Shown here: piece by piece, positions 6,144 to 31,832 of the stretch
Numbering within the stretch: position 1 is the first letter of the stretch
Layout of the letters: each line of letters opens with the position of its first letter
From: an uncultured Desulfobacterales bacterium
GTDB taxonomy: Bacteria; Desulfobacterota; Desulfobacteria; Desulfobacterales; JAHEIW01
NCBI GenBank assembly: GCA_947259495.1
Contig: CAMYLV010000008.1
Location: 71,939 to 135,938, forward strand
DNA length: 64,000 nucleotides
Reading direction: 5' to 3'
Notes under the pieces: generated by a model
What the model saw: only the letters and a program-made list of their open reading frames with translations
What the model was told of the DNA's origin: nothing
The model's database searches: none
Made by a program: the position numbers and the translations under genes

Positions 6144-6755
6144 TTATGCCCGTTTGGCCCGTTTTGGCATCATGTCCCGTATATACATCTCATCGGCCCA
6201 AAAACGGCGGGCGGCGCGTCTGTCGACCGGTTCGGCGTAATCAATTCCGATCCGGCGGCCTTTTTTGATAAACCGCTCCGGTATTGTGGGCTGCGCCTCC
6301 ACCCACAGCTTCTGACCGGCAGTAAGGTCCCATCCGTTTAGCGACTTGTTGACAGCCAGTGCCTGACATAATTTGGCCGGGCCGTCCGTCAGTTCTTTGC
6401 CAGTTCTGCCACGATAGCGCTGCATGTGTTTAAGGCCGTCAAGCGGCACGATCGCGCGAATGAGAATGGCACAGGGATTTTCTTCTTCCTCGGTAACGAT
6501 GTTCAATAAATAGTGCATCCCATATACAAAATATATATAGGCCCTGCCGGCACGGCCGAACATGACCGTGTTGCGCGCTGTTTTGCCCCTGAAAGCATGG
6601 CTGGCGCTATCGTTTGGGCCCAGGTATGCTTCTGTCTCGCAAATCAGGCCGCTCAAAATATTGCCTCTGTATTTTCGGACAAGCTTTTTCCCCAACAATT
6701 CACCGGCGATCATCAGGGTGTCACGCGCATAAAAATGGTGCTTTAAGATATTCAT
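6144..6755 (-). CDS. mpg: DNA-3-methyladenine glycosylase (AAG/MPG family)
   Basis: FYARDTLMIAGELLGKKLV...ETEAYLGPNDSASHAFRGKTARNTVMFG...AYIYFVYGMHYLLNIV matches the MPG-family signature. Confidence 0.9.
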   Translation of the reverse strand: MNILKHHFYARDTLMIAGELLGKKLVRKYRGNILSGLICETEAYLGPNDSASHAFRGKTARNTVMFGRAGRAYIYFVYGMHYLLNIVTEEEENPCAILIRAIVPLDGLKHMQRYRGRTGKELTDGPAKLCQALAVNKSLNGWDLTAGQKLWVEAQPTIPERFIKKGRRIGIDYAEPVDRRAARRFWADEMYIRDMMPKRAKRA

Positions 6756-9670: not shown

Positions 9671-11333
9671 ACCCCGCATCTGGCCGCTCAAGAACCGCGG
9701 TTTGTCAAAGGCTAATGGCAAAGGCGGCGCGCGCCTCATTTTGCTCGGCACATTCGGCCTGCTTTTCTGGTGCGGTATATTCGCCGTCTCCTGGCGGGTT
9801 TTGATTTACTTTAAGGGCATTGAGGATATCGGAGACATTCTGGGCTATAAATTATTGTCCATGATGCTGGTGGTGTCTTTTGCCCTGCTTCTATTCAGCA
9901 ACATCCTCACATCCCTTTCCAAACTCTATCTGTCCCGCGACCTTTTGCTGGTTCATTCGCTGCCGGTTTCCAGTTATAAGATTTTTATCACGCGCTGGGT
10001 CGACAGCACTATTGACAGTGCCTGGATGGTCATCATTTATACCATGCCCGTGCTCATCTCCTATGGCATCGTCTATAAAACCGGCATTTTTTACTATATC
10101 AACACCCTGATTGCGATGTTGTGCCTGGCAGCGATCGCTTCGGCCATCAGCACTCTACTGGTGATGACTGCGGTCATCTTTATCCCCGCCAGCCGAATGA
10201 AAAGTGTCTTTATTCTCATGGGGATTCTTTCTTTTGTGGTCATCTATCTGGCCATCCGCCTTTCACAGCCGGAATTGCTTGTCGACCCGGAAATTTTTGA
10301 CACCGTTATGGTCTATATTACCTCGCTGCAAACGCCGTCATCACCGTTTTTGCCGAGCAGCTGGATATATGACAGTATTCGATCCGCTCTTGCCGGTGCG
10401 ACCAGCAACAGTTTGTTTTTCACGGCGCTGTCTTTGAGTTTTGCCGGGATGATTGCATTTGTCCTGATCTTACTTGCCGATGCGATTTACTTTAAAGGCT
10501 TCTCCAAAACACAGAATGCTCCGGCCCGTTTGTTTAAAAGCAACGTCATCGGCGATCGCCTTTTTAACTTTCTGCCGGGCCCGGTAAGGTCCTTTACGGT
10601 CAAAGAAATAAAGACCTTCCTGCGCGACCAGACCCAGTGGACGCAGATCTTTCTGATTGCCGCCCTGGTGGTGATTTACGTTTATAATTTCAAGGTCCTG
10701 CCCCTTGAAAAATCGCCGATCAAAACCGTGTACCTGCAGAATCTATTCTCATTTCTTAACATGGGACTGGCGTTGTTCGTTTTGACAGCCATAACCGCCC
10801 GATTTGCCTACCCGGCGGTCAGTCTGGAAAGAGAGGCCTTCTGGCTGGTTAAAACCTCCCCGCTATCCATCCGTACGTTTTTATGGATTAAATTTTTCAT
10901 CTATTATCTTCCGCTACTCATCTTGACCGAGGTTCTGATTGCGGCAACCAACATCCTGCTGCAGGTCACGCCGTTTATGATGATCCTTTCAACCCTTACG
11001 GTTTTTTTTGTTGTCCCCGGCATCGTGGCACTGGGCATCGGCCTGGGAGCGGCCTATCCGGATTTTAAAGCCGAAAATCCGACCCAGACCATAACCAGTT
11101 TCGGCGGACTGGTCTTTATGATTGCCTGCGCCGGATACATCGGCCTGGTGGTCCTCATCGAGGCGGGTCCGGTGTACAATCTCTTTATGGCCGGCATCCG
11201 CAATAAATTTATCAGCCTGTCAGCCTGGATATGGATTATCGGCTCCTTTGGCCTGGTATTGGTTCTCAGCCTGCTGGCCATTTTTCTGCCGATGCGCTTT
11301 GGCCGGAGACGCCTGTCCCAATTGCTCATCTGA
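9645..11333 (+). CDS. polytopic membrane protein, putative ABC exporter permease partner
   Basis: 562 aa with many hydrophobic helices. It overlaps the ATPase gene end by 26 nt. Confidence 0.7.
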   Translation: MNEVLTLFKPRIWPLKNRGLSKANGKGGARLILLGTFGLLFWCGIFAVSWRVLIYFKGIEDIGDILGYKLLSMMLVVSFALLLFSNILTSLSKLYLSRDLLLVHSLPVSSYKIFITRWVDSTIDSAWMVIIYTMPVLISYGIVYKTGIFYYINTLIAMLCLAAIASAISTLLVMTAVIFIPASRMKSVFILMGILSFVVIYLAIRLSQPELLVDPEIFDTVMVYITSLQTPSSPFLPSSWIYDSIRSALAGATSNSLFFTALSLSFAGMIAFVLILLADAIYFKGFSKTQNAPARLFKSNVIGDRLFNFLPGPVRSFTVKEIKTFLRDQTQWTQIFLIAALVVIYVYNFKVLPLEKSPIKTVYLQNLFSFLNMGLALFVLTAITARFAYPAVSLEREAFWLVKTSPLSIRTFLWIKFFIYYLPLLILTEVLIAATNILLQVTPFMMILSTLTVFFVVPGIVALGIGLGAAYPDFKAENPTQTITSFGGLVFMIACAGYIGLVVLIEAGPVYNLFMAGIRNKFISLSAWIWIIGSFGLVLVLSLLAIFLPMRFGRRRLSQLLI

Positions 11334-11374
11334 CCCCCTGCAAGCCTGCAAAGTCCCATCTTCAAATTTTCATC

Positions 11375-11403
11375 TTGACAGCCATAATGTATACGTTTAT
11401 ATT
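11375..11403 (+). promoter_or_regulatory. candidate sigma70 promoter for the 4HB-remnant/lexA transcription unit
   Basis: TTGACA (11375-11380), a 17-nt spacer, then TATATT (11398-11403). The spacer contains the near-palindrome AATGTATACGTT. Confidence 0.5.
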
Positions 11404-11422
11404 TACATTAATATTTACATTA
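11399..11422 (+). promoter_or_regulatory. exact tandem 12-mer ATATTTACATTA x2 overlapping the -10/+1 region (possible operator)
   Basis: Read directly: ATATTTACATTAATATTTACATTA immediately at and after the -10 hexamer. Confidence 0.35.
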
Positions 11423-11428
11423 TTCTCT

Positions 11429-11708
11429 GGTTTACCGTTCAAAGGTTCGGGGTTCAAAGATTAAAGACAAATCTGAACCGTTGCTTCGAAGATCCGAGGA
11501 GAAAAGGATGAAAATCGAACAATTTGACGACATTGAAGCCTGGCAATTGACCCGGAAGCTCACTCGCAAGGTCTATGAATTGACAAAAAAGCCCAAATTT
11601 GATCGCGACTTCGGCTTGAAGAGGCAAATTCAGGAGGCCGCCGGTTCATCCATGCACAATATTGCGGTAACCCTGAACGGTGAACCCTGAACCCTTGAAC
11701 CTGAAACC
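11429..11708 (+). repeat. flavoured-hairpin element copy B (GGTTCA / TGAACC arms) carrying an internally deleted four-helix-bundle gene
   Basis: Left array GGTTTACCGTTCAAAGGTTCGGGGTTCAAAG. Right array GTAACCCTGAACGGTGAACCCTGAACCCTTGAACCTGAAACC, whose first 27 nt are identical to the right arm of copy C. Confidence 0.8.
11508..11690 (+). pseudogene. truncated four-helix-bundle protein gene (23S rRNA IVS protein family), N-terminal 53 codons only
   Basis: MKIEQFDDIEAWQLTRKLTRKVYELTKKPKFDRDFGLKRQIQEAAGSSMHNIA, then the frame reads straight into the right repeat arm. By eye there are 15 mismatches over 160 nt versus 13339-13498. The roughly 210 bp present in copy C between ATTGCGG and TAACCC are absent. 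Confidence 0.8.
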
Positions 11709-11724
11709 GACGAAAGGAGGTTTC

Positions 11725-12357
11725 ATGAAAGTCCCGCTGACAGCCAAACAGCAGCGTGTTCTGGATTATCTTCAGCGCGAAATCGCCAAAACCGGTCTGT
11801 GCCCCAGCCTGCGCCAGGCTGCAGCGAATCTGGGGGTCAGCCATGCCGCTATCGCCCAGATCCTTCGTGTGCTGGAAGAAAAAGGCTATGTTAAGCGCGA
11901 GGGGCGTTACAGCCGCAACGTTTATTTGTTAAATCGCACGCGCCAGGCAGCGGCTTTGCAGCGCTGGCGCGAAATCCCGATTATCGGTCGTGTCACGGCC
12001 GGTCTACCGATGTACGCCCAGACGGAGTGGGACGGCAGCATCGTGCTGGATGCCGCCGTTTATCGCAGTCAAAACATCTTCGCCCTGCGCGTCAAGGGCG
12101 ATTCGATGAGAGATGCCGGCATCCTCAACGGCGACCTGGCGATCTGCGAACCGCGTCAGTACGCCCAAAATGGGGAAATCGTCGTGGTTCTCATTAACAG
12201 TGAAGAGGCCACTGTCAAACGCTTCTTTTTACGTGACGACCACATCGAGCTGCGTCCGGAAAATACCGACTACGCCCCCATGCGTTACGGCTTCGGCGAA
12301 GTGCTGGTTCAGGGCAAGATCATCGGCATCCACCGCGGCCCGGAAGAAATAAATTGA
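11725..12357 (+). CDS. lexA: LexA repressor (S24 peptidase)
   Basis: wHTH N-terminus (LTAKQQRVLDYLQREIAKTGLCPSLRQAA), catalytic GDSM and VKRF Lys motif. AAAGGAGG SD 5 nt upstream of the ATG at 11725. The track ORF start at 11680 lies inside the repeat arm. Confidence 0.9.
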   Translation: MKVPLTAKQQRVLDYLQREIAKTGLCPSLRQAAANLGVSHAAIAQILRVLEEKGYVKREGRYSRNVYLLNRTRQAAALQRWREIPIIGRVTAGLPMYAQTEWDGSIVLDAAVYRSQNIFALRVKGDSMRDAGILNGDLAICEPRQYAQNGEIVVVLINSEEATVKRFFLRDDHIELRPENTDYAPMRYGFGEVLVQGKIIGIHRGPEEIN

Positions 12358-12468
12358 GCACGCTGCGCATTTGAGGAGCGGTCCTCGGAACCTTTAGGAA
12401 CGCTCCTTCAGCCGGGCATGATGGCATTGCGCAAGCGTTAGCAGCATCCCTTGGCGTAGAAAACGAAA

Positions 12469-13293
12469 ATGCAAACCGAGCAAACAAAAAGCCCCTGCCG
12501 CCTGTGGGTCGGCACCAGCGGTTATTCGTATACAGAGTGGGTCAACGCCGGGTTTTACCCGCCGGGCACCCGATCGGGCCAGATGCTGCCGCTTTACGCC
12601 CGAACCTTTCCGATCACCGAACTGAACTTCACCTGGTATCAGATGCCGAAAGCCGCTGCCATCGAACGCATGCGCCGGCAGGCACCGCCCGGTTTTCGTT
12701 TTGCCGCCAAACTGACCCGCACCTTAACCCATGAGGTGGACCCCGACCAATGGCGGGGGCAGGCCTCTCAATACCGCGACGGCATGGCACCGCTGGTCCA
12801 GGCCCGGCAGCTGACAGCTGTTTTGCTGCAGTTTCCGCCGAGCTTTTCCCGGGCGCCGCAAAATCGCCGCTACCTGGCCGCCCTTCTGGACGAACTGGCC
12901 GGATTGCCCCTGGCGGTGGAATTTCGCCATGCCTCATGGGCCGCGGACCGGGTTTTTGCCGAACTGGAGCGCCGCCGCACCACCTTGGTGGCCGTGGATG
13001 AACCGGCTTTACCGGGCCTGTTTCCGCGACTCGATTTGGTCACCAATCCGGAGCTTTTCTATATTCGGTTTCACGGCCGCAACGCCAGAGGCTGGCGCTC
13101 GGGCAATATGCAAATGCAGTTCGACTACGACTACCGTGATGAAGAGCTGCGGGAATGGGCTGATAAAATCATCACACCGATGACCCGACAGGCCGGCAGC
13201 GGGACAATTTTTTTCAACAACCACGTCCGCGGCCAGGCACCCAAAAATGCCCGGCGTTTGATCAGCCAGTTAATTGAAGGAGGTCTTCTCTAG
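12469..13293 (+). CDS. DUF72 (YecE-like) family protein
   Basis: WVGTSGYSYTEWVNAGFYPPG N-terminus, FRFAAKL, AVLLQFPPSF and AVEFRHASW are typical DUF72 blocks. Confidence 0.85.
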   Translation: MQTEQTKSPCRLWVGTSGYSYTEWVNAGFYPPGTRSGQMLPLYARTFPITELNFTWYQMPKAAAIERMRRQAPPGFRFAAKLTRTLTHEVDPDQWRGQASQYRDGMAPLVQARQLTAVLLQFPPSFSRAPQNRRYLAALLDELAGLPLAVEFRHASWAADRVFAELERRRTTLVAVDEPALPGLFPRLDLVTNPELFYIRFHGRNARGWRSGNMQMQFDYDYRDEELREWADKIITPMTRQAGSGTIFFNNHVRGQAPKNARRLISQLIEGGLL

Positions 13294-13745
13294 GTTCAGA
13301 GGTTCCGGGTTCTGGGTTCAAAGGTTCTGAGGAAAAAAATGAAAATCGAACGATTTGAAGACATTGAGGCCTGGCAATTGGCCCGGGAGTTAACACGCAA
13401 GGTCTATGAATTGACAAAAAAGCCCCGGTTTGCGGGCGACTTCGGCTTGAAGAGACAAATTCAGGAGGCCGCCGGTTCATCCATGCACAATATTGCGGAA
13501 GGATTCGATTCGGAGACAAACCCGGAATTTATTCGTTTTCTTCGATATGCCAAGCGGTCTTGCACTGAAGTCCAGAGTGAGCTTTACGTGGCACTGGATC
13601 AGCAATACATAACAACTCAAGAGTTTCAGAATGTGTACGACCATGCCGGGCGTACCCGTGCTGCCATTCGAGGTTTCATTAAGTACTTGCTAGCTTATGA
13701 GCAAGGTAACCCTGAACGGTGAACCCTGAACCTATGAACCCTTAT
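13293..13745 (+). repeat. flavoured-hairpin element copy C (GGTTCA / TGAACC arms) with an intact four-helix-bundle gene; the reference full-length copy
   Basis: Left array GGTTCAGAGGTTCCGGGTTCTGGGTTCAAAGGTTCTGAGG (13293-13332). Right array GTAACCCTGAACGGTGAACCCTGAACCTATGAACCC (13706 onward). Together they bracket ORF 13339-13722. Confidence 0.85.
13339..13722 (+). CDS. four-helix-bundle protein (23S rRNA intervening-sequence protein family, PF05635/TIGR02436-like; Avd-like fold)
   Basis: 127 aa with FEDIEAWQLARELTRKVYELT...GLKRQIQEAAGSSMHNIAEGF...EFIRFLRYAKRSCTEVQSELYVALDQQYIT, the hallmark pattern of this family. Confidence 0.85.
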   Translation: MKIERFEDIEAWQLARELTRKVYELTKKPRFAGDFGLKRQIQEAAGSSMHNIAEGFDSETNPEFIRFLRYAKRSCTEVQSELYVALDQQYITTQEFQNVYDHAGRTRAAIRGFIKYLLAYEQGNPER

Positions 13746-14915
13746 AACCGTTCAATTATCCATTTAAACGTGGCTGATTTTGCCGTGGCGGTGGAAAGGG
13801 CGGTGGATCACCGGCTGCACGAACGTCCGGTGATCATCGCACCCGAAGGCGCCGTACGCGCCGCCGTTTATGACATGAGCAACGAGGCCTATATAACCGG
13901 CATCCGCAAGGGCATGGCCCTGCAGCGAGCCGTTCGCCTGTGTCAAGATGTCCGCATCCTGCCGCCCCACCCCCACCGCTACGAACAGGCCATGCGCGAT
14001 GTGCTCAAGCGCGCCCTGCCGTATTCACCCCTGATCGAAACCGGTGAAGACGACGGCCACCTGTTTATGGATGCCACCGGCACCGGCCGCCTTTTCGGGC
14101 CGCCCAGGGATGTGGCCTGGCGGTTGCGCCGGCAGATCAAAACCGACCTGGGCCTGGACCCGATCTGGTCGGTGGCACCCAACAAATTGGTGGCCAAAGT
14201 GGCCACCCGCCTGGTGAAACCCGATGGAGCGTACATCGTCTCGGCCGGCGAAGAAAGATCGCTGCTGGCCCCGCTGCCTGTCCGCCTGGTTCCAGGCATC
14301 GAGCGCGATGACCTGCTTCGGTTGCGGGAATTCAATTTGACGCATGCATTTCAGGTCGCGGCCCTGAGCCTGGAGCAGTTGGCGGTCCCTTTTGCCACCC
14401 GTGCCCGGCTGCTTTACGAGGCGGTGCGCGGCATCGATCCGTCTCCGGTTTTGCCGGTCGGGCAGAAACCGCCGCAGGTGATCGCCGATCACGAATTCGG
14501 CATCGACACCAACGATGTGCACACCCTGGAGAGCGTTCTCTACGGGCTGGTGGAGCAGGTTGGCAGCCGGCTGCGCCGACGCCGGCGAGTTGCCCGCCGC
14601 ATTGCCATTGTGCTCGACTATTCCGACGGCATGCGCCGCGCCCGCCAGGTGGCCGCCCGGCCGGCCACGGCCAATGACCTCACCCTCTTTGAACTGGCCC
14701 GGCGCGCACTGCAACTGGCCTGGATGCGGCGGGTGCGTATCCGCCACCTGCGCCTGATCGGCGCCCGGCTGGTCTTTCCGCCGGCCCAGTTAGAACTGTT
14801 TGCCGCCGATCAGAAAGCCGATGAAAAGCGATCCAGCCTGATCGGCGCCATCGACACCGTGCGCCACCGCTTCGGCCATGAGGCCTTGCGGTTCGGCCGC
14901 ACTTTAGCGGCCTAA
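13719..14915 (+). CDS. imuB: ImuB-like Y-family DNA polymerase homologue (catalytically inactive type)
   Basis: IIHLNVADFAVAVE aligns with the DinB motif IIHVDMDCFFAAVE, but both Asp residues are replaced. The SLDE position reads DDGH. Both candidate ATGs (13719, 13734) lie inside the right arm of element C, and the gene sits upstream of dnaE2. Confidence 0.8.
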   Translation: MNPEPMNPYNRSIIHLNVADFAVAVERAVDHRLHERPVIIAPEGAVRAAVYDMSNEAYITGIRKGMALQRAVRLCQDVRILPPHPHRYEQAMRDVLKRALPYSPLIETGEDDGHLFMDATGTGRLFGPPRDVAWRLRRQIKTDLGLDPIWSVAPNKLVAKVATRLVKPDGAYIVSAGEERSLLAPLPVRLVPGIERDDLLRLREFNLTHAFQVAALSLEQLAVPFATRARLLYEAVRGIDPSPVLPVGQKPPQVIADHEFGIDTNDVHTLESVLYGLVEQVGSRLRRRRRVARRIAIVLDYSDGMRRARQVAARPATANDLTLFELARRALQLAWMRRVRIRHLRLIGARLVFPPAQLELFAADQKADEKRSSLIGAIDTVRHRFGHEALRFGRTLAA

Positions 14916-14916
14916 C

Positions 14917-15212
14917 TGCCGGTTTGCCCGTTGCCGGTTTAGCCCGTTGGCCGGTTGATAATTGAACGAATAACCATCAGAACAAACTGTTGAACAAACG
15001 AATTTATTCGATTTTTAACATATTCGCGACGCTCTTGTTCTGAGGTACAAAATTGCCTGTATATTGCTTTGGACCAGAAGGACATCTCCCCAGAAGCGTT
15101 TCAAAGTACTTATGACCACTGTGCAAGGATCAGGAAAATAATTGATGGCCTAATCCGTTACTTGAAAAACCATCAACCCGGCTAACGGGCCAACGGGCTC
15201 AACCGGCTCAAC
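14917..15212 (+). repeat. flavoured-hairpin element copy D (GCCSGTT / AACSGGC arms) with a 5'-truncated four-helix-bundle gene fragment
   Basis: Left array CTGCCGGTTTGCCCGTTGCCGGTTTAGCCCGTTGGCCGGTTG starts 2 nt after the imuB stop. Right array CAACCCGGCTAACGGGCCAACGGGCTCAACCGGCTCAAC ends 6 nt before the dnaE2 ATG. Confidence 0.8.
14997..15185 (+). pseudogene. four-helix-bundle protein gene fragment (C-terminal half only)
   Basis: Hand translation NEFIRFLTYSRRSCSEVQNCLYIALDQKDISPEAFQSTYDHCARIRKIIDGLIRYLKNHQPG* aligns with residues ~62-124 of the 13339-13722 protein (roughly 60% identical by eye). An in-frame TGA lies just upstream and there is no start codon. Confidence 0.75.
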
Positions 15213-15218
15213 TTTGTT

Positions 15219-18200
15219 ATGATCCCATTAACCGTCCGATCCAACTACTCTTTCATGTGGGGCACAGCTTCGGTCAAACAGGTCTGCCGGGCAGCCCGAC
15301 GTCTGGGCTATACGCACCTGGCGCTGACCGACACCGACAACCTGTGCGGCCTGTGGCCCTTTTTAACCAGCTGTCGGCGCGAAGGACTGACACCCATTGT
15401 GGGGGCGGAGATCACCGACCCGCAGCGCAAGCAGCGGGCCGTCTGCCTAGTGGCCAATGATTCCGGCTACCGCAACCTCTGCCGCCTGTTGACCCGCCGC
15501 CACATGGACGATGATTTTAGTTTGGCGGCCGCTGTAAGCGCCCATGCAAATGGATTGGTGGTCCTTACCCAGAGCGCGGGCCTGCTCAGCGCCTGGCATG
15601 CTGACGGCGTTGCAGTTGCCGGCGCCCTGCCGCGTCGTCCTTTGCCCGCCACCCACCGACTGCGCCACACGGCCCGCCGCCTGGGCGTGTCGGTGGTAGC
15701 CACGCCAGGCAGTTTCTTTTTGCGTCCCGCAGACATGGCGGTGCATCGCATTTTGCGCGCCATCGCGCACAACACATCCCTGTCACGCCTGGCAGCCGAC
15801 GAAGTTGCCCCGGTAGATGCATGGCTGGCAGGCCCTCAAGAATATGAACGCCGCTTTGCCATCTGCCCGGAGGCAATCAGCGTCACTTACAAAATAGCCG
15901 AACGTCTGGATTTTAGCGGCCCGCAATTTGGCATTGTCATGCCGCCGCTGCTCGGTCAAAACGGCAGCAACCCGGCCGAGCGCCTGCGCGAGCAAGCTTA
16001 TGAAGGTGCGCGGCAGCGCTACGGCGATGAGCTTTCCGAGGCCGTGGTGGAGCGGCTGGAACACGAATTGCGCAGCATCACAGACATGGGATTTGCCGCA
16101 TATTTTTTAATCGTGCGCGGCATCATCCAGCGCAGCCCGCGCACCTGCGGCCGCGGCTCGGGCGCCGCTTCGCTGGTGGCTTACTGCCTGGGCATTACCA
16201 ATGTCTGTCCCCTGAAGCACAATTTGTATTTTGAGCGGTTCTTAAACCCGGGCCGCCAAGATCCGCCCGACATCGATGTGGATTTTGCCTGGGATGAACG
16301 CGATGCGGTCCTGGATTCGGTCCTGACCCAGTATCCGGGTCACGCCGCTATGGTGTCCAGCCACGTGCTGTTTCAACCGCGCATGGCGGTGCGCGAAGTG
16401 GCCAAGGTCTTCGGGCTGACCGATGCCGAAATCGGCCGGGTGTCCAAGCGGCTGCCCCAATTCTGGCGCGTGAAAGAATCCGACCCTCGATTTTTGGACG
16501 AACTACAGCAGCGTCCCGAATCCAAAGCGCTGGCGTTTCCCCCGCCCTGGCCCGACATTTTGCAGTTTGCCCAGCGCCTGATCGGCACCCCGCGCTATAT
16601 GTCGGTGCACCCCGGCGGCGTGGTGATCACGCCGCGGCCTATTGAAGAATACGTCCCTGTCGAGCGCGCCCCCAAAGGCGTGCCGATTATCCAGTGGGAA
16701 AAGGATGCCACCGAAGATGCCGGGCTGGTCAAAATTGATTTGCTGGGCAACCGCAGCCTGGGGGTCATTCGTGACGCCCTGGTCAACCTGCGCGACAACG
16801 GCACCGCCTTCGACGAGCTGCGCTGGGAACCCGAAGACGACTTTGCCACCCAGGAGGCTCTGGCCCAGGGTCGCACCATGGGCTGTTTTTATATCGAAAG
16901 CCCGGCCATGCGCCTGCTGCAGCAAAAGTCCAAAGTGGGCGATTTCGAACACCTGGTCATTCACAGCAGCATTATCCGCCCGGCTGCCAACGAATTTATC
17001 CAGGAATACATCCGCCGGCTGCACGGCGGCCGCTGGGACCCGATTCATCCTTTTTTGGCCGAAGTGCTCGCTGAAACCTTCGGCATCATGGTTTATCAGG
17101 AAGATGTCTCCCGCGCGGCAGTGGTTATCGCTGGCTTTTCGCATGCCGAAGCCGATACGCTGCGCAAAGTGCTGACCAAAAAGGATCGCGCGCATCAGCT
17201 GCGGGATTTTGAGCAACGCTTTTACACCGGCGCACGGCAGCACGGCGTATCCGCTGACAAAACCGCTGAAATCTGGGATATGATGATGAGCTTTAACGGC
17301 TATTCCTTCTGCAAACCCCACAGTGCTTCTTATGCCCGGGTATCCTTTCAGGCCGCCTATCTCAAGGTCCATTATCCGGCCGAATTTATGGCTGCGGTGA
17401 TCAGCAACCAGGGCGGCTTTTACGGCACCTTTGCCTACGTGTCCGAGGCCCGGCGCATGGGTCTGAAGGTGCTGCCGCCCAATGTCAGCTTAAGTGAGGT
17501 TCACTGGACCGGCGGGGCCGATACCATCCGGGTGGGGCTGCTGTCCGTCAAGGGCCTGGGCATCGACACCCGGGCGCGCATCGTTGCGCAGCGTCGCCGC
17601 CGGTCCTACGGTAGTCTGCGGGATTTTTTGGACCGCGTGCGCCCCGCGGAAGACGAGGCCCGCTCATTGATCAACTGCGGCGCCCTGGATGCCTTCAACT
17701 CCGGCGGCAACCGCGCAGCGCTGCGGTGGGAACTGGCCGGCTGGTTGAAATCAAAACGGCCGAAAGTGCCCAACCCCGCCCTGTTTGATGGTGCCAACCC
17801 TGGCGCCGATTGCCCGCCGCCGGCACTGCCCGCCGAAGATGAACGCGAACGACGGCGGCGTGAGTTTACGGTGCTGGACTTTCTGTGCGATCGTCACCCC
17901 ATGGAGCTGTTTGCCGGACAGTTGCAAAAACGACGCACCGTTAAAGCCGTGGACCTGCCGTGCTTTGTCGGCCGGCGGGTCACTCTGGCCGGCTGGCTGA
18001 TTACCGGCAAGGTGGTTTCCACCAAAAAGGGCGATCCCATGGAGTTTTTAACCTTTGAAGATGAAACCGGTATTGTAGAGACTACCTTTTTCCCGCAAGC
18101 CTACCGCCGTTTTTGCCACATCATCGATCGCCAGCGGCCCTATCTGCTTACCGGCAGGGTCGAAGCGGACTGGGGCGCGCTGACCCTTACAGTCGAAAAG

Positions 18201-18224
18201 GCCGAACAGTTGAAGTCCAGCTAA
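15219..18224 (+). CDS. dnaE2: error-prone DNA polymerase III alpha homologue DnaE2 (ImuC)
   Basis: 1001 aa with an N-terminal PHP domain (LTVRSNYSFMWGTAS), a pol III alpha core (PDIDVDF, GYSFCKPHSASYA) and a C-terminal OB fold. It follows imuB. Confidence 0.9.
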   Translation: MIPLTVRSNYSFMWGTASVKQVCRAARRLGYTHLALTDTDNLCGLWPFLTSCRREGLTPIVGAEITDPQRKQRAVCLVANDSGYRNLCRLLTRRHMDDDFSLAAAVSAHANGLVVLTQSAGLLSAWHADGVAVAGALPRRPLPATHRLRHTARRLGVSVVATPGSFFLRPADMAVHRILRAIAHNTSLSRLAADEVAPVDAWLAGPQEYERRFAICPEAISVTYKIAERLDFSGPQFGIVMPPLLGQNGSNPAERLREQAYEGARQRYGDELSEAVVERLEHELRSITDMGFAAYFLIVRGIIQRSPRTCGRGSGAASLVAYCLGITNVCPLKHNLYFERFLNPGRQDPPDIDVDFAWDERDAVLDSVLTQYPGHAAMVSSHVLFQPRMAVREVAKVFGLTDAEIGRVSKRLPQFWRVKESDPRFLDELQQRPESKALAFPPPWPDILQFAQRLIGTPRYMSVHPGGVVITPRPIEEYVPVERAPKGVPIIQWEKDATEDAGLVKIDLLGNRSLGVIRDALVNLRDNGTAFDELRWEPEDDFATQEALAQGRTMGCFYIESPAMRLLQQKSKVGDFEHLVIHSSIIRPAANEFIQEYIRRLHGGRWDPIHPFLAEVLAETFGIMVYQEDVSRAAVVIAGFSHAEADTLRKVLTKKDRAHQLRDFEQRFYTGARQHGVSADKTAEIWDMMMSFNGYSFCKPHSASYARVSFQAAYLKVHYPAEFMAAVISNQGGFYGTFAYVSEARRMGLKVLPPNVSLSEVHWTGGADTIRVGLLSVKGLGIDTRARIVAQRRRRSYGSLRDFLDRVRPAEDEARSLINCGALDAFNSGGNRAALRWELAGWLKSKRPKVPNPALFDGANPGADCPPPALPAEDERERRRREFTVLDFLCDRHPMELFAGQLQKRRTVKAVDLPCFVGRRVTLAGWLITGKVVSTKKGDPMEFLTFEDETGIVETTFFPQAYRRFCHIIDRQRPYLLTGRVEADWGALTLTVEKAEQLKSS

Positions 18225-18257
18225 GTTTTTAGCACCAGCGGGGTATTACCAGCGAAT

Positions 18258-19664
18258 TCATTCCAGCCCCAGAGTTGATCGGGCACTCATCTTTTGAGGA
18301 GCCACTGACAATTCGCCGGCACCTGATCTGTCAGCAGCAAATCCAACTGTCCAAACCTTCACCTTGCCGCTGGTAGTGGAATAGGTTTGAAAGCGCAGAT
18401 CGCCGGTTTCTGTAAGGTAAGAGTAGTCAAAATTCGTAGAATGTATACCCAGGGTCTCAACATAATAGGACCGCCAGCTGACGCCATTGTTAAAACTGCG
18501 GTGCAGTTTATTATGTCCGTCGACTGCCGTTAGGGTGCCATTTGCATCTGTCAGGATTCTTGCGGGAATAGACTCAAAAGGCAGTTTTAGGGGTGCAGAC
18601 CAACCGATCTCGGGTCGCCACAATGACCACCATGAGGTATCGTTGCTGTTATCGGCGAAAGACACCGTCGGATGCCCGTCTGCGGTAGCCCCAACATAAC
18701 TGGTGTACCAGAGGTTGCCGGCGCTGCCCGTCCAGTCGGGCCCAACGACGACATCTGCGTTTTTAAGGGTGATCGGCAATGTTTCGTAAAGAGATCCATC
18801 TGCACGTTTAAAGGTGTCTCCACCGTCATCCGATAACGCATAAAGTACGTGGGTATGATAGCCCGATGAACCATTCCCGTCATCCACCACCCAGGTGATG
18901 TGCATCCGGTTGTTGCGGTCAAAAAAGATGCGCTGTCGATACGGCTGATAGGCTGTACCGTCGGCCCCGGAGTCATTCCAAAAAAAAGTTTTGGCCGCAT
19001 GCGCGTAATCCGTACCGCCCAGCATCACCCAGGTTTTAGCGTCGGCATCGTATCGCGCAATGGCTGCGGCAATGATGCCGGGAGACCAGCCGGTACCGAA
19101 TTTTATCCGGTGACGAAAAGCAACGTAAAGAACGCCGTTCAGGTCCCGGGCAAATGAAGGATAGGTGATCCAGTTTCCCGGGATTGTCCGCGCTTGCTCA
19201 CCGCCAACAAACGTAAAAGAAGAGATATCTTCCGGTTTATCGGAAACGACATATTGCCAGGCATATTCATAGTAGGGGTTGCCTGTTTTGGGATGATTAA
19301 ATGGGGAATGATACATATTGCCGGCAACATGAATATACCCGCTGCGGTCTATACCCACAGACGCGCCATTATACCAGGGCGCAGGGTCGGTTTCTTCAAA
19401 AATAACGTTTTTAGATGTCGACCCGTCGGATGACTTCTTGACGATGAGCGTCTTTAATTGCCGGGTCACATATACGTAATAAATGGCATCGTTGTAAGTA
19501 GCCACCGGGGTTTGCCAATCACTGCCGGTTACTTTGGAAGCATCATTGAATTCGAATTCTTTTTTAATGGTGACGGTTTCCGGTGACTGTTGCCCCCATG
19601 CCGTCATTGCATATATGCATAGAGCCACCGGAACCGCCACCAAAGCGGGGTAAAATCGCCGCAT
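18258..19664 (-). CDS. secreted BNR-repeat-like (BNR_4-type) beta-propeller protein
   Basis: ALSDDGGDTF and SFNNGVSW Asp-box-like motifs. Signal peptide starts at the internal MRRFYPALVAVPVALCIYAMTAWG (ATG 19664); the track ORF extends to 19757. Confidence 0.65.
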   Translation of the reverse strand: MRRFYPALVAVPVALCIYAMTAWGQQSPETVTIKKEFEFNDASKVTGSDWQTPVATYNDAIYYVYVTRQLKTLIVKKSSDGSTSKNVIFEETDPAPWYNGASVGIDRSGYIHVAGNMYHSPFNHPKTGNPYYEYAWQYVVSDKPEDISSFTFVGGEQARTIPGNWITYPSFARDLNGVLYVAFRHRIKFGTGWSPGIIAAAIARYDADAKTWVMLGGTDYAHAAKTFFWNDSGADGTAYQPYRQRIFFDRNNRMHITWVVDDGNGSSGYHTHVLYALSDDGGDTFKRADGSLYETLPITLKNADVVVGPDWTGSAGNLWYTSYVGATADGHPTVSFADNSNDTSWWSLWRPEIGWSAPLKLPFESIPARILTDANGTLTAVDGHNKLHRSFNNGVSWRSYYVETLGIHSTNFDYSYLTETGDLRFQTYSTTSGKVKVWTVGFAADRSGAGELSVAPQKMSARSTLGLE

Positions 19665-29976: not shown

Positions 29977-31302
29977 TTAAGGCCCGAAAACCAGACGGGG
30001 CAACCAGGTGGCCAGTTTAGGGAAAAAGACAACAATTCCCAGCCCGATGAGCTGAAAAAAAACAAAGGGGATAATACCGCGATAGATATGGCCGGTCGTC
30101 ACTTCCGGCGGTGTCACCGCTTTAAGATAAAACAGTGAAAAACCAAACGGGGGCGTTAAAAACGACGTTTGCAGGTTGACCGCCAGCAGGATGCAAAACC
30201 AAACCGGGTCGTATCCGAAATCGATCATAATCGGTGCCAGAACCGGCACATGGATAAATGTAATTTCGATAAAGTCCAGAAAAAAACCGATGAAAAAGAT
30301 CAGAAGCATCACGATCGCCAGAACCGCGCCCTGGCTGTATTGATCGGCTATCCCGCCCAAAAACCCCCTGACAAGCTGATCGCCGCCCAGGCCCCGGAAA
30401 ACCAGCCCGAAAGCAGCCGCCCCGCACAGGATGATAAAGACCATGCAGGTTAAGCGCAGGGTGGTGTGCATGACTTCTTGCAGAATTTTTAAGCTAAACT
30501 TGCGGTTGACGATCGTCAGGAAGGTTGCGCCGACCGCACCCAGGGCCGCGGCCTCGGTCGGCGAGGCGATGCCGGCAAAGATGGAACCCAACACGGCCAC
30601 CATTAAAAATAAAGGCGGTAACAGCGCGCGGCCGACCCGGGCGGCAAGCTGGCGGGGACCGATCGCCGCCAGTTCTTCTTTCGAAATGGCCGGCGCCACA
30701 CCGGGCCTCAAAAAAGCAACGATCAGTATATAAAGGATAAAAAGACCCACCAGCAACAGACCCGGCAGCACCGCACCGATAAAAAGATCCCCGACCGAAA
30801 CCCCGACAATGTCACCGATGAGCACCAGCACGATGCTGGGCGGAATGATCTGCCCCAGGGTGCCGGAAGCCGATACCGTGCCGGTGGCCAGTTCTTTTTG
30901 ATATCCGCGCCTGAGCATCGTCGGCACGGCCAGCAATCCCATGGTCACCACGGTAGCGCCGACAATACCGGTGGAGGCCCCCAGCAGCGCACCGACCACA
31001 ACCACTGAAATCGCCAGGCCGCCCCGCAGGCGCCCGAAAAGCAGGCCCATGGTATCCAGCAATTCCTCCGCCAGTCCCGATCGTTCCAGCATAACACCCA
31101 TAAACACAAACAGGGGAACCGCAGCAAGTAATACGTTGGTCATGCGGCCCCAGATCCGCAGGGGCAGTAAGTTAAAAAAATCCCATCCAAAACCGATCAG
31201 GCCGAAGGTCAGCGCGGTGCCCAGCAGCGTAAAGGTAACCGGGAATCCGCCCATCAATAAAATCGTTAAGGCTAAAAACATCCAGGCGGCAAGATATTCC
31301 AT
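29977..31302 (-). CDS. TRAP transporter large permease (DctM family)
   Basis: 441-aa polytopic protein, typical DctM length and composition, overlapping the dctQ stop. Confidence 0.85.
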   Translation of the reverse strand: MEYLAAWMFLALTILLMGGFPVTFTLLGTALTFGLIGFGWDFFNLLPLRIWGRMTNVLLAAVPLFVFMGVMLERSGLAEELLDTMGLLFGRLRGGLAISVVVVGALLGASTGIVGATVVTMGLLAVPTMLRRGYQKELATGTVSASGTLGQIIPPSIVLVLIGDIVGVSVGDLFIGAVLPGLLLVGLFILYILIVAFLRPGVAPAISKEELAAIGPRQLAARVGRALLPPLFLMVAVLGSIFAGIASPTEAAALGAVGATFLTIVNRKFSLKILQEVMHTTLRLTCMVFIILCGAAAFGLVFRGLGGDQLVRGFLGGIADQYSQGAVLAIVMLLIFFIGFFLDFIEITFIHVPVLAPIMIDFGYDPVWFCILLAVNLQTSFLTPPFGFSLFYLKAVTPPEVTTGHIYRGIIPFVFFQLIGLGIVVFFPKLATWLPRLVFGP

Positions 31303-31832
31303 CAGGATTGTGCCTCCTTGGCCTTCTCAATTCCCAGAATCTGCATTAAGCTATGGCAGCCCAATGATATCCCCTGCAGCAGTAAGAGTGAGAACCCGAC
31401 CGGCATGCAGCCTTTAAGCACAAACCGAAAAGGAATGCCGCCGGGATCCGGTGAGCCCTCCAGAATGGCAAATGAATTTTGCATAAATCCCCAGGAGGTG
31501 GTAATCACCATGATACAGCCGGGTATCAGGAATAAAAGGACACCGCCCAAATTAATCCAGGCCCGGGCTTTGAATCCGACCCGCTGATAGATGATATCCA
31601 CCCGGACGTGACCGTCATGCAGCAGGGTATAGCCGGCACCCATCAGAAAAATAAAGCCAAACAGATGCCATTCCAGCTCCTGGGTAAAAACGAAACTGGT
31701 TTTAAACAGATAGCGCATAACCACATCGACAAATACCACCAGCACCAGGCCCAGCGTCACCCAGGCAACGCCCCGGCCGACCCACTGGTTGAGGGCATCG
31801 ATTAAGGCGCTCAATTTTTGAAGTGCTCGCAT
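31302..31832 (-). CDS. TRAP transporter small permease (DctQ family)
   Basis: 176 aa with 4 TM helices, immediately upstream of DctM. Confidence 0.8.
   Translation of the reverse strand: MRALQKLSALIDALNQWVGRGVAWVTLGLVLVVFVDVVMRYLFKTSFVFTQELEWHLFGFIFLMGAGYTLLHDGHVRVDIIYQRVGFKARAWINLGGVLLFLIPGCIMVITTSWGFMQNSFAILEGSPDPGGIPFRFVLKGCMPVGFSLLLLQGISLGCHSLMQILGIEKAKEAQS

Follow-up and report, generated by a model that had tools for sequence, protein, structure and literature searches.

The region analyzed, part of a 64-kb stretch of DNA from an uncultured Desulfobacterales bacterium (the window), very likely represents a LexA-controlled SOS operon of the imuA-less class LexA-iPolY(gbDinB2-like)-DnaE2, as judged from its sequence. 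It is composed of a promoter/operator, lexA, a DUF72 gene, a gene for an inactive Y-family polymerase homologue (iPolY), and dnaE2 (Table 1). At the sequence level, the cassette differs from the published class by one additional conserved gene, namely, DUF72.

Table 1. Features of the lexA-DUF72-iPolY-dnaE2 cassette, with positions given in the 64-kb window
Feature	Position	Strand	Description or evidence
Sigma-70-type promoter	11375..11403	+	TTGACA, 17-nt spacer, TATATT; 11/12 consensus positions
Candidate LexA operator	11384..11423	+	TACAT-containing repeats: TAATGTA on the left, then ATATTTACATTA twice in tandem
Element E1, lexA leader	11429..11708	+	Inverted-repeat element with internally deleted PF05635 gene
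lexA, repressor gene	11725..12357	+	TIGR00498 (E 1.8e-48, 164.8 bits vs cutoff 110.95); PF01726 and PF00717 match
DUF72 (TM1631- or YecE-like) TIM-barrel gene	12469..13293	+	PF01904 (E 7.6e-60); 1vpq (E 1.1e-43)
Element E2	13293..13741	+	Inverted-repeat element with intact four-helix-bundle gene (13339-13722, 127 aa)
Inactive Y-family polymerase homologue (iPolY, gbDinB2-like)	13734..14915	+	PF00817 and PF11799
Element E3	14918..15207	+	Inverted-repeat element with decayed C-terminal half of a different four-helix-bundle gene
dnaE2, error-prone C-family DNA polymerase	15219..18224	+	NF004225 "error-prone DNA polymerase" (E 4e-173)

Composition and control of the operon

The four genes, in the order lexA, DUF72, Y-family gene, and dnaE2, are all encoded on the plus strand behind one strong promoter, which is the only strong promoter-like site on this strand in 11200-18500. 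Inside the operon, no terminator-like site with a stem of more than 5 pairs was found on the plus strand. The candidate operator contains an inverted pair (11384-11400/11407-11423) and overlaps both the -10 box and the probable start of transcription. The pattern TTACAT-N6-TTACAT, with at most one mismatch, has a single match in the 64 kb, at 11403. Among relatives, TTACATTGACATTTACAT (at most 2 mismatches) was present in 101 of 123 lexA leaders, and 104 of its 105 matches in 1.74 Mb were located upstream of lexA. The TTTACAT-repeat motif, found once per locus, is cassette specific and a candidate LexA operator. The LexA sequence contains VTAG as an Ala-Gly cleavage site, together with the Ser in GDSM and the Lys in TVKRF, and this lexA probably represents an autoregulated copy belonging to the cassette itself.

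For the Y-family gene, the alignment with relatives favors ATG 13734 over GTG 13719 as the most likely start codon. Over its full length, the gene product is 34% identical to one published gbDinB2-like protein (E 3e-67) and 33% identical to a second (E 4e-59). By its sequence, it is catalytically dead: two of the three catalytic carboxylates are lost, DinB D8 is replaced by N and E104 by H in 107 of 107 relatives, and the steric-gate residue F13 is replaced by A. At the C terminus, the clamp motif QLELF precedes a RecA-NT-like motif; the clamp motif (QLELF/QMDLF) and the RecA-NT motif lie within the full-length alignment of iPolY and the published gbDinB2-like proteins. Alignments with relatives and with these published proteins revealed no ImuB-C extension at the C terminus. 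The earlier note had named this gene imuB, an assignment that we rejected in favor of the gbDinB2-like group of inactive Y-family polymerases. DnaE2 comprises PHP, DNA_pol3_alpha, finger, HHH_6, and OB domains, and the catalytic aspartates are located in the PDIDVDF and VKIDLLG motifs, as seen by comparison with Escherichia coli DnaE. Some cassette variants contain a DinG/XPD-like helicase gene directly 3' of dnaE2.

The absence of imuA from the cassette, stated in the earlier note, was confirmed: an ORF and profile search of the cassette detected no RecA- or ImuA-like ORF. LexA-iPolY-DnaE2 operons of the gbDinB2-like group that lack imuA have been described, and RecA has been proposed as the partner (PMC6511836, PMC12926913). 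The cassette resembles this LexA-iPolY(gbDinB2-like)-DnaE2B(-RecA) putative mutasome (Timinskas and Venclovas 2019, PMC6511836; Timinskas et al. 2026, PMC12926913) in the combination of lexA, an inactive Y-family gene, and dnaE2 without imuA, in the full-length alignment of the Y-family protein with its clamp and RecA-NT motifs and without ImuB-C, and in a taxonomic range of delta-proteobacterial lineages that include Desulfobacterales. It differs in the conserved DUF72 gene between lexA and the iPolY gene, where the published system shows only an unnamed gene at the same position in two Desulfobacterales genomes, given as "LexA->{1}->iPolY->DnaE2" for Desulfococcus oleovorans and Desulfocapsa sulfexigens (PMC6511836, Table S4). 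According to the same table, Geobacter, Nitrospira, and other lineages harbor the cassette without DUF72, and in several lineages the iPolY gene directly follows lexA with nothing between. The DUF72 slot is therefore not an imuA slot, and the Y-family protein is not ImuB; the proposal that DUF72 occupies the usual place of imuA is not supported as it was put. With the canonical ImuA-ImuB-DnaE2 system (ImuABC), the cassette shares a LexA-linked operon, the pairing of a dead Y-family protein with DnaE2, and the presumed function, damage-induced error-prone synthesis. Unlike that system, it contains no imuA, its Y-family protein lacks ImuB-C and is nearer to DinB-like proteins by sequence, and a DUF72 TIM-barrel gene is present instead.

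Inserted elements and base composition

The elements E1, E2, and E3 each fill one intergenic gap of the cassette. The arms of E1 (11429-11456/11681-11708) are 82% complementary; at the nucleotide level, 175 nt of the element are 89% identical to E2, with 94% identity for the 3' 36 nt, and tblastn matched it to residues 1-59 of the four-helix-bundle protein with 80% identity. The arms of E2 (13293-13320/13713-13740), also 82% complementary, are paired in the minimum-free-energy fold, and its gene matches PF05635 (E 1.4e-28) and TIGR02436 (E 3.7e-27). E3 has arms (14933-14956/15184-15207) that are 92% complementary and a tblastn match with 54% identity to four-helix-bundle residues 63-123, with stop codons in frame. 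The earlier note missed the intact PF05635 gene and the two decayed copies; contrary to its statement that DUF72 stands alone there, the interval from lexA to the Y-family gene holds one more extra gene, the intact PF05635/TIGR02436 gene. PF05635 is the Pfam family common to the S23p ORFs of 23S rRNA intervening sequences and to DGR Avd proteins. As in these intervening sequences, PF05635 genes or remnants are bracketed by inverted repeats able to form a long closing stem, but E1 to E3 reside inside a protein-coding operon and not in rRNA. Unlike the situation for Avd proteins, no reverse transcriptase or DGR parts were present near E1 to E3.

The earlier observation that the block is richer in GC than its surroundings was borne out by the GC and third-position GC (GC3) analyses. 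The cassette (11725-18224) has a GC content of 0.594, as compared to 0.495 for the rest of the window. In 1-kb windows, values between 12 and 18 kb were 0.58-0.64, with a dip to 0.53 at 13-14 kb, over E2 (GC 0.48), whereas elsewhere they ranged from 0.41 to 0.58 and were mostly ~0.45-0.52. Local GC values of 0.40-0.48 were observed at ~11.35-11.65 kb, 13.3-13.75 kb, and 14.95-15.25 kb, and these three dips coincide with the three inserted elements. Among the 45 non-overlapping ORFs of at least 150 aa in the window, the four cassette genes had the four highest GC3 values (lexA, 0.67; DUF72, 0.69; Y-family gene, 0.76; dnaE2, 0.71), whereas the other 41 averaged 0.568 (sd 0.048; maximum 0.664). 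The antisense ORFs 14025-14747 and 16503-17372 noticed before are present, and in the 9-21 kb interval the GC-rich block is where long antisense ORFs are concentrated.

The earlier note took this composition as a sign of horizontal acquisition. It could reflect a recently acquired genomic island with a GC excess derived from a GC-richer donor, and cassette-type loci on Planctomycetota, Chloroflexia, and Hyphomicrobiales contigs are compatible with occasional long-term transfer. However, in 53 of 53 related loci the cassette exceeded its flanks in GC, and its GC content in these loci tracked that of the host over a range of 0.49-0.77. Furthermore, synteny of the upstream ABC permease gene was seen in 37 loci and extends down to 49% identity, and the divergence of this gene parallels that of DUF72 (Spearman 0.87). 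A search at the cassette found neither a tRNA gene nor an Rfam match nor bracketing direct repeats, and there was no integrase or transposase among the scanned genes flanking it. Taken together, these data make a recent arrival very improbable and largely refute it; the GC excess is an old, long-maintained property of the cassette and does not show a recent transfer.

Linkage and conservation of the DUF72 gene

The linkage of DUF72 with translesion genes was surveyed in 80 genome loci and 80 metagenome loci, plus more distant relatives, giving approximately 175 loci overall; in nearly every relative among these, DUF72 has the same slot, down to 47% identity. Desulfosarcina widdelii PP31 and D. 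alkanivorans PL12 are among the carriers available in culture. The recurrent linkage anticipated by the earlier note was found: the order lexA-DUF72-Y-family gene-dnaE2 was kept in essentially all 160 loci where the contig reaches far enough, although such counts overstate the number of independent observations because related loci are phylogenetically non-independent. The more distant relatives (44-49% identity) keep the same order, with overlapping DUF72 and iPolY ORFs. The gap between both genes is often 30 nt or less, or the ORFs overlap, and the frequency of this overlap suggests translational coupling. The predicted co-regulation of DUF72 with the polymerase genes is likewise consistent with one strong promoter, one cassette-specific motif, and this frequent overlap. 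On these grounds, DUF72 is probably tied functionally to the SOS/translesion synthesis response.

Within the cassette, DUF72 shows the highest conservation, exceeding iPolY in 88 of 94 loci and dnaE2 in 91 of 94. A non-functional passenger that hitch-hikes in the operon, for which nothing speaks beyond the missing known function of DUF72, would not be expected to show the highest amino acid conservation of the cassette, an ORF that is intact in nearly all loci, and all family-invariant residues; this reading is already contradicted by the conservation data and has a negligible probability. The cassette-type proteins form a discrete subfamily, in which one full-length representative scored 403 bits and the next full-length ones at most 230 bits.

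A further possibility is that DUF72 is an SOS-regulated enzyme with a function apart from the DnaE2 complex, such as a repair or nucleotide-processing reaction of its own, and is part of the operon only to share LexA control. Several observations point in this direction: locus L059 contains a lexA-DUF72 pair with the motif and no polymerase genes, in L092 the motif is directly upstream of DUF72, and in L176 a DUF72 gene of the cassette subfamily is found in an unrelated context. The occurrence of subfamily members without polymerase genes (L059, L176) implies that DUF72 can act independently, and the lineages with LexA-iPolY-DnaE2 but without DUF72, such as Geobacter and Nitrospira, imply that the polymerase complex does not generally depend on it. 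The family is also large (8902 representative clusters) and found mostly outside such cassettes. These arguments are set against an almost invariant slot between lexA and iPolY in ~175 loci, down to 44-49% identity, the ORF overlap with iPolY, and a conservation above that of the polymerase genes. The association with PolB2 translesion operons of archaea and bacteria, near which DUF72 is enriched "to some degree" (Timinskas et al. 2025, PMC11791011), bears on both sides: DUF72 also occurs near operons unrelated to the present one, but the fact that it accompanies two translesion polymerase systems unrelated to each other argues for a role tied to translesion synthesis. In both systems DUF72 is found by a damage-inducible translesion polymerase operon, and LexA is also associated in the bacterial PolB2 cases. 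They differ in that the B-family PolB2 is accompanied by iRadA and PPB2, whereas C-family DnaE2 and a dead Y-family protein are present here, and in that DUF72 is almost invariant here. We regard an enzyme independent of DnaE2 as rather unlikely.

Predicted role of the DUF72 protein

The AlphaFold2 model of the cassette DUF72 protein (pLDDT 93) superposes on 1vpq with TM values of 0.84-0.88, and the protein matches the DUF72 family (PF01904; TM1631 1VPQ, EF0366 1VPY/1ZTV, E. coli YecE) clearly at the sequence level. Every polar position that is invariant in the family is retained; E51, K81, H88, Q121, E151, R153, D177, R200, H202, R204, N250, and N251 are at least 93% conserved over 115 diverse representatives. 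The cassette subfamily differs from the rest of the family in being discrete and almost always embedded in a lexA-iPolY-dnaE2 operon, and the score with the YecE equivalog model (46 bits) was far under the cutoff of 412. A role as a DNA-repair nuclease has been proposed computationally for the DUF72 family (PMC3828134), as has a DNA-binding groove related to endonuclease IV/UVDE (PMC3828134, PMC11791011); of the 8 DNA-contact residues proposed for Tm1631, only 5 are conserved or conservatively replaced here. Endonuclease IV/APN1 and UVDE, which are likewise TIM barrels of ~270-290 residues, recur among the best structural matches outside the DUF72 family (TM 0.45-0.53), interleaved with unrelated TIM barrels. 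In contrast to this structural likeness, no UvdE or AP_endonuc_2 Pfam match was obtained for DUF72, even at E values up to 10. Since the resemblance is weak, we can only infer a nuclease role. The TIM barrel, the invariant residue cluster, and the distant likeness to endonuclease IV/UVDE suggest that DUF72 most likely acts enzymatically on DNA phosphodiesters, and it is conceivable, but tentative, that it is a lesion-directed nuclease feeding DnaE2.

The earlier note implied instead a structural mutasome subunit that replaces ImuA or ImuB-C and binds iPolY and DnaE2. Like imuA in canonical cassettes, DUF72 is located upstream of the Y-family gene, its ORF overlaps that of iPolY in many loci, and iPolY lacks ImuB-C, the domain used in canonical cassettes for contacts with ImuA and DnaE2. 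However, DUF72 has no similarity to RecA or ImuA and is a TIM barrel whose polar, active-site-like cluster is fully conserved; the RecA-NT motif retained by iPolY points to RecA as the partner; the published AlphaFold models of iPolY-DnaE2B-RecA complexes contain no DUF72; and sister lineages lack DUF72 altogether. A structural role of this kind is accordingly improbable.

The best explanation overall, to which we attach reasonable confidence, is an SOS iPolY-DnaE2 operon in which DUF72 may serve as a nuclease. DNA damage would activate RecA and lead to LexA self-cleavage, and the operon would be derepressed, so that its products are made together. The dead Y-family protein would tether DnaE2 to the beta clamp and to RecA, which would stand in for ImuA, and DnaE2 would perform error-prone synthesis. 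DUF72, whose predicted chemistry is based on the invariant Glu, Glu, Asp, His, His, Lys, Arg cluster in the TIM barrel, may cut the DNA at lesions or close to them, thereby generating or processing the substrate for DnaE2 fill-in, and would not be a structural replacement of ImuA. DUF72 is not mentioned in the text of PMC6511836 and PMC12926913 or in the supplements consulted; the type of operon has already been described, and the strongly conserved DUF72 gene had been neither named nor discussed as part of that system.

Gene content and class of the operon

Between 11.3 and 18.3 kb, the four long plus-strand ORFs and one of 127 aa were scanned and assigned to LexA, DUF72, PF05635, a Y-family polymerase homologue (iPolY) and DnaE2; the remaining plus-strand ORFs are located within these genes or before the promoter. 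Their coordinates, together with those of the other features discussed, are compiled in the table. The 127-aa gene encodes a four-helix-bundle protein of the Avd/23S-IVS family and was missed in the earlier note on this DNA, which described the DUF72 gene as the only extra gene between lexA and the Y-family gene, there named imuB. The translated LexA contains the residues required for self-cleavage, namely, an Ala-Gly site together with a Ser (in GDSM) and a Lys (in TVKRF), and DnaE2 shows all five of the five expected domains. As that note had stated, no RecA/SulA-like imuA is present among the assigned genes of the cassette, and a search with Pfam or NCBIfam for ImuA- or RecA-like ORFs among 19 other scanned ORFs of the window was equally negative. 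A methylpurine-DNA glycosylase gene (PF02245, E 7e-63) was found about 5 kb upstream of the cassette. The very strong AT skew (0.24-0.33) at 30-32 kb was considered as an unusual feature and proved to be ordinary, being accounted for by the genes of the TRAP-transporter membrane components DctM and DctQ on the minus strand.

Features of the window and of related loci (L-numbered genome and metagenome loci with cassette-type DUF72)
Feature	Location	Strand	Description
Methylpurine-DNA glycosylase gene	6144-6755	-	PF02245
Promoter-like site	11375-11403	+	TTGACA-N17-TATATT
TACAT-containing repeats	11384-11423		overlap the -10 box
E1	11429-11708		internally deleted PF05635 gene copy; 89% identical to E2
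lexA	11725-12357	+	TIGR00498, 164.8 bits (cutoff 110.95)
DUF72 gene	12469-13293	+	PF01904, E 7.6e-60, 203.1 bits (cutoff 25.3), model positions 1-215 of 217
E2	13293-13741		intact PF05635 gene
Four-helix-bundle gene, 127 aa	13339-13722	+	PF05635, 99.7 bits (cutoff 33.8); TIGR02436, 94.7 bits (cutoff 24)
iPolY gene	13734-14915	+	Y-family polymerase homologue
Antisense ORF	14025-14747
E3	14918-15207		decayed half of a different PF05635 gene copy
dnaE2	15219-18224	+	NF004225 'error-prone DNA polymerase', E 4e-173
Antisense ORF	16503-17372
Strong AT skew	29977-31832
Related loci with PF05635 elements	L002, L006, L008, L010, L012, L018, L020, L021, L080
Further loci with PF05635 elements	L087, L093, L108, L117, L136, L142, L162-L169
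219-aa ORF between iPolY and dnaE2	L163 4657-5316		weak Y1_Tnp match
lexA-DUF72 pair	L059 9001-10768
Motif and DUF72	L092 about 1369-2336
DUF72 in unrelated neighbourhood	L176 1213-2022
DinG/XPD-like helicase gene	L172 11105-12864
DinG/XPD-like helicase gene	L173-L175 11070-12870
DinG/XPD-like helicase gene	L035 6913-8670

The designation of the Y-family gene as imuB had to be rejected. The ImuB-C domain is absent from the protein, for which Pfam returns only IMS and IMS_C, and BLASTP aligned it end to end with two published gbDinB2-like members, namely, those of Citrifermentans (BCG45748; 34% identity, E 3e-67) and Nitrospira japonica (SLM47932; 33% identity, E 4e-59); the best matches to solved DinB proteins reached only E 1e-21 to 1e-23. 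Both alignments span the clamp and RecA-NT motifs. The C terminus of the 393-aa iPolY contains ...PPAQLELF..., a beta-clamp-type motif, and then LIGAIDTVRHRFGHEALRFGR; 5 residues remain past the RecA-NT-like motif (...RHRFGHEALRFGRTLAA). QLELF and LIGAIDTVRHRFGHEALRFGR align with published motif strings, for example RLSLAVDRIRAKFGVQAVSWG. In an alignment with E. coli DinB that comprised the iPolY of the window and 106 relatives, the position of the catalytic D8 is occupied by Asn and that of E104 by His in all 107 sequences, and the steric-gate position of iPolY is occupied by Ala; iPolY is therefore catalytically dead. These changes are uniform, with no random decay, which suggests selection for a specific altered site. 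From its domain content and motifs, the protein shows the hallmarks of the inactive PolY proteins that Timinskas and Venclovas group as 'gbDinB2-like'.

The cassette thus shares with the canonical ImuA-ImuB-DnaE2 system a dead Y-family partner and a dnaE2 gene, but differs from it by having no RecA/SulA-like imuA and a Y-family protein without ImuB-C after the RecA-NT motif. With the LexA-iPolY(gbDinB2-like)-DnaE2B-RecA system, it has in common both the full-length gbDinB2-like iPolY with clamp and RecA-NT-like motifs and the operon of lexA, iPolY, and dnaE2. Such LexA-iPolY-DnaE2 operons without imuA have been described, and RecA has been proposed on the RecA-NT motif instead of ImuA (PMC6511836); the associated DnaE2B group is found in genomes without imuA or imuB (PMC12926913). 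Judged by gene order and protein signatures, the cassette belongs to this known LexA-iPolY(gbDinB2-like)-DnaE2 class and is not a canonical cassette minus imuA. The imuA-less state is known for a known class and is no anomaly of the locus. Table S4 of PMC6511836 lists 'LexA->{1}->iPolY->DnaE2' for Desulfococcus oleovorans and Desulfocapsa sulfexigens, and no gene between LexA and iPolY for Geobacter, Nitrospira, Syntrophobacter, and others; the unnamed '{1}' indicates that an extra gene had already been seen. DUF72 is mentioned neither in PMC6511836 nor in PMC12926913 (text and supplements examined), and full-text searches retrieved no paper linking DUF72 with imuB, dnaE2, or LexA, except for a 2025 study that reported its enrichment beside PolB2 translesion operons (PMC11791011).

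Linkage of DUF72 to the operon and its leader

Genomes were scanned with the DUF72 protein, using one genome per species. In the best 80 of 536 relatives (57-93% identity), the order lexA, DUF72, Y-family gene, dnaE2 was observed wherever the contig extends; most of these 80 loci belong to Desulfobacterales and Desulfobulbales, and two are in complete Desulfosarcina genomes. A metagenome scan seeded from a Planctomycetota copy provided 80 more loci with the same gene order, which is conserved in about 175 loci overall. The core inference of the earlier note, a recurrent linkage of DUF72 and the polymerase genes, was thus confirmed by this neighbourhood survey. The cassette-type DUF72 forms a discrete subfamily: an all-against-library search returned one full-length representative with 403 bits and 69% identity, and the next full-length representatives did not exceed 47-49% identity and 230 bits. 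Four of the five relatives looked up at 44-49% identity keep the same operon, and in those distant relatives there is an overlap of 8-59 nt between the DUF72 ORF and that of the Y-family gene. Across the related loci, 49 of 138 cases have at most 30 nt between both genes. DUF72 is better conserved than any other gene of the cassette, with a mean identity across loci of 72.0%, as compared to 69.2% for LexA, 67.3% for DnaE2, and 65.2% for iPolY; its identity exceeds that of iPolY in 88 and that of DnaE2 in 91 of 94 loci. DUF72 is an added conserved fourth gene and probably not a replacement of ImuA. The earlier placing of it in the usual position of imuA is not supported, given that a class without imuA was already known.

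All cassette genes are on the same strand behind one strong promoter. The site TTGACA-N17-TATATT matches 11 of 12 consensus positions and is the only strong promoter-like site on the plus strand; no terminator-like plus-strand site with a stem of more than 5 pairs was found inside the operon. The repeats that overlap the -10 box consist of TAATGTA, followed by two copies of ATATTTACATTA. The idea of a palindromic LexA box common to the sequences ahead of lexA was discarded, as a search for it gave no dominant palindrome; from the leaders themselves emerged a tandem TTTACAT-type motif. Its consensus in the relatives, TTTACATTGACATTTACAT, contains tandem TKACAT hexamers in which the -35 hexamer is embedded. 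With up to 2 mismatches, TTTACATTGACATTTACAT is present in 101 of 123 lexA leaders. In 1.74 Mb searched on both strands there were 105 matches, of which 104 precede lexA and the remaining one is located immediately before DUF72. The motif occurs once per locus and almost only upstream of lexA (loci L001-L160). Desulfobulbales-type loci have a TGTACAT variant. The motif had no match in the literature searched for the operator and is, from its position and recurrence, a good candidate operator of the cassette LexA.

Several individual loci differ in gene content. At the locus L059, lexA and DUF72 form a pair that has the motif but no polymerase genes, in L092 the motif immediately precedes DUF72 and lexA does not intervene, and in L176 a DUF72 gene is located in an unrelated neighbourhood, next to genes for a DUF3024 protein and an integrase. 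In some variants, dnaE2 is directly followed by a DinG/XPD-like helicase gene (DEAD_2 and Helicase_C_2, with a weak PDDEXK_1 match), the ORF of which overlaps the dnaE2 stop codon in four of five loci.

The main rival to the role of DUF72 preferred below is that it acts as an SOS enzyme in its own right and has no more than the promoter in common with the polymerase genes, and the existence of loci with only lexA and DUF72, as well as of lineages in which the cassette has no DUF72, fits this explanation. However, the near-invariant placement of DUF72 and the overlap of its ORF with that of iPolY argue against it.

Base composition and inserted elements

In 1-kb windows, GC was 0.58-0.64 over 12-18 kb, with a dip to 0.53 at 13-14 kb, whereas values outside the cassette in the 64-kb window ranged from 0.41 to 0.58 and were mostly about 0.45-0.52. 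Sliding-window and codon-position GC agree with the earlier description of the cassette as GC-richer than its surroundings (59.4% for 11725-18224 versus 49.5% for the remaining window). The GC3 values of lexA (0.67), DUF72 (0.69), the Y-family gene (0.76), and dnaE2 (0.71) are the four highest in a set of 45 long ORFs that do not overlap; the remaining 41 have a mean of 0.568, a standard deviation of 0.048, and a maximum of 0.664. Because GC3 is also raised, amino-acid composition alone is insufficient to account for the GC offset. The two antisense ORFs named in the earlier note do exist; long antisense ORFs are a usual by-product of GC-rich coding sequence. At a finer scale, GC was 0.40-0.48 at about 11.35-11.65, 13.3-13.75, and 14.95-15.25 kb, and these three short stretches proved to be inserted elements.

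Horizontal acquisition had been suggested on the basis of this composition, but a recent event was not borne out. In each of the 53 related loci whose flanks were usable (L002-L080), cassette GC exceeds flank GC, by a mean of 7.6 points (range, 2.7-15.6), and absolute cassette GC tracks host GC over the range 0.49-0.77. In 37 loci, synteny extends to the ABC permease upstream, and its divergence parallels that of DUF72 (Spearman 0.87) down to 49% identity. Checks for island hallmarks revealed no tRNA genes and no match to Rfam families, no direct repeats bracketing the cassette were found, and there is no mobility gene among the flanking genes. Upstream, these are two genes of an ABC transporter with the orientation of the cassette; downstream, a BNR-repeat gene converges on it. 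Taken together, the excess in all 53 relatives, the tracking of the host, and the permease synteny indicate that the cassette has long been resident at this site and has kept its GC offset. On these comparative grounds, the GC excess is no sign of recent transfer; it is a maintained compositional offset of the cassette. Single contigs with DUF72 cassettes are labelled Planctomycetota, Chloroflexia, and Hyphomicrobiales, and these sporadic cassettes in other phyla are compatible with older transfers. The persistent excess is a warning against reading compositional islands as recent transfer.

The three inserted elements (E1, E2, and E3) fill every long gap of the cassette except that between lexA and DUF72, and are bounded by imperfect inverted repeats of 24-28 nt with short tandem units. 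No further copies were detectable elsewhere in the 64 kb. A profile search of the window and 160 loci detected 22 PF05635 ORFs, all in cassette gaps and at four different gap positions, a result to be read in the light of a profile that was built from cassette copies and of loci that are related to one another. The same search detected no PF05635 ORF in about 1 Mb of flanking DNA. The idea that the elements are exclusive to the cassette was rejected, since another genome has a homologue of 87% identity between cyclase and GAF-domain genes. In four loci (L163-L166), a 219-aa ORF with a weak match to Y1_Tnp (IS200/RAYT-like) lies between iPolY and dnaE2, and is another sign of cassette gaps collecting mobile DNA. 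The metagenome locus L093 (Ga0265309_10004517) shows 98-99% protein identity to the window across the ABC permease, lexA, DUF72, the four-helix-bundle gene, and iPolY, and carries the same E1- and E2-type insertions; it probably represents the same or a very close population.

The right arms of the elements stop 11-17 nt ahead of the lexA and dnaE2 start codons and overlap the start codon of iPolY. In the predicted RNA fold of E2 the terminal arms pair, and this pairing alone is notable; the fold of the whole element is not significantly more stable than that of shuffled sequences (z = -1.5). Intervening sequences of rRNA affect RNA processing or translation, and we speculate that the element arms could by analogy do the same. 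The PF05635 elements could then serve the mutagenesis operon as functional modules for RNA processing or regulation, a reading weaker than the one proposed for DUF72 below. A literature search for PF05635 elements in operons retrieved nothing relevant.

Fold and possible role of DUF72

The DUF72 sequence matches the solved proteins TM1631 (E 1e-43) and EF0366. A first AlphaFold2 model, based on 47 sequences of 77% identity or more, was poor (pLDDT 66.5) and discarded; endonuclease IV and UVDE were absent from its top 50 fold matches. The second model, for which a more diverse alignment was used, had a pLDDT of 93 and a pTM of 0.90. It matched 1VPQ with a Foldseek E of 4.5e-24 (TM 0.84/0.88) and 1ztv with a TM of 0.83, and shares the predicted TIM-barrel fold with the solved DUF72 members. 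Beyond the DUF72 structures, Foldseek returned many TIM barrels with TM 0.4-0.58, including xylose-isomerase-like domains. Chains of endonuclease IV/APN1 and UVDE recur in the top 50 (E 1e-4 to 3e-3, TM 0.45-0.53), amid unrelated TIM barrels; the UVDE chains reach TM 0.53. The DUF72 barrel has been stated to be related to UVDE (PMC11791011), and DUF72 has been likened to the DNA groove of endonuclease IV (PMC3828134); the likeness of our model is compatible with these statements and too weak for membership of either family. In accordance, Pfam at E up to 10 gave only DUF72, with no UvdE or AP_endonuc_2 match. A PADLOC search with DUF72, iPolY, and the four-helix-bundle protein matched no defence system.

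Among 115 diverse DUF72 representatives (35-69% identity), E51 and E151 are conserved in 100%, and K81, H88, Q121, R153, D177, R200, H202, R204, N250, and N251 are conserved in 93-98%. None of the polar residues that are close to invariant in this set has been lost from the cassette DUF72, which is thus very probably an active enzyme with the common chemistry of the family. Its cluster of acidic, histidine, and basic residues would suit metal- or phosphate-directed catalysis. These data bear on the proposal that DUF72 is a structural substitute for ImuA, which is unlikely: apart from the unrelated fold, the conservation of this catalytic-looking cluster and the presence of the RecA-NT motif on iPolY speak against it.

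The model that we prefer, and put forward tentatively, is that DUF72 incises or otherwise processes lesions and would thereby supply the substrate of an iPolY-RecA-DnaE2 complex. It is conceivable, although rather doubtful, that DUF72 is the missing incision enzyme and that the operon encodes a self-contained, damage-induced nick-and-resynthesise pathway. Such a pathway would comprise DUF72 as nuclease, iPolY as clamp/RecA adaptor, and DnaE2 as polymerase, to which some lineages would add the DinG/XPD-like helicase. The helicase appended after dnaE2 is in keeping with a module by which damaged DNA would be incised, unwound, and resynthesised.

To our knowledge, DUF72 is a large bacterial and archaeal family with structures about twenty years old and no demonstrated function; it comprises thousands of clusters and three orphan crystal structures. 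The data presented here provide it with a precise context, as an almost invariant member of a DnaE2 operon linked to LexA, in which its translation is probably often coupled, in agreement with the enrichment reported near PolB2 translesion operons. DnaE2 mutasomes drive damage-induced mutagenesis in many bacteria, and those without ImuA are still poorly understood. The cassette is present in cultured organisms, among them Desulfosarcina widdelii PP31 and D. alkanivorans PL12, so that the prediction is directly testable. If DUF72 is a lesion-processing nuclease, an orphan family would be assigned and the ImuA-independent DnaE2 mutasomes would gain a new part; the whole DUF72 family may then consist of widespread lesion-processing nucleases that partner translesion polymerases.
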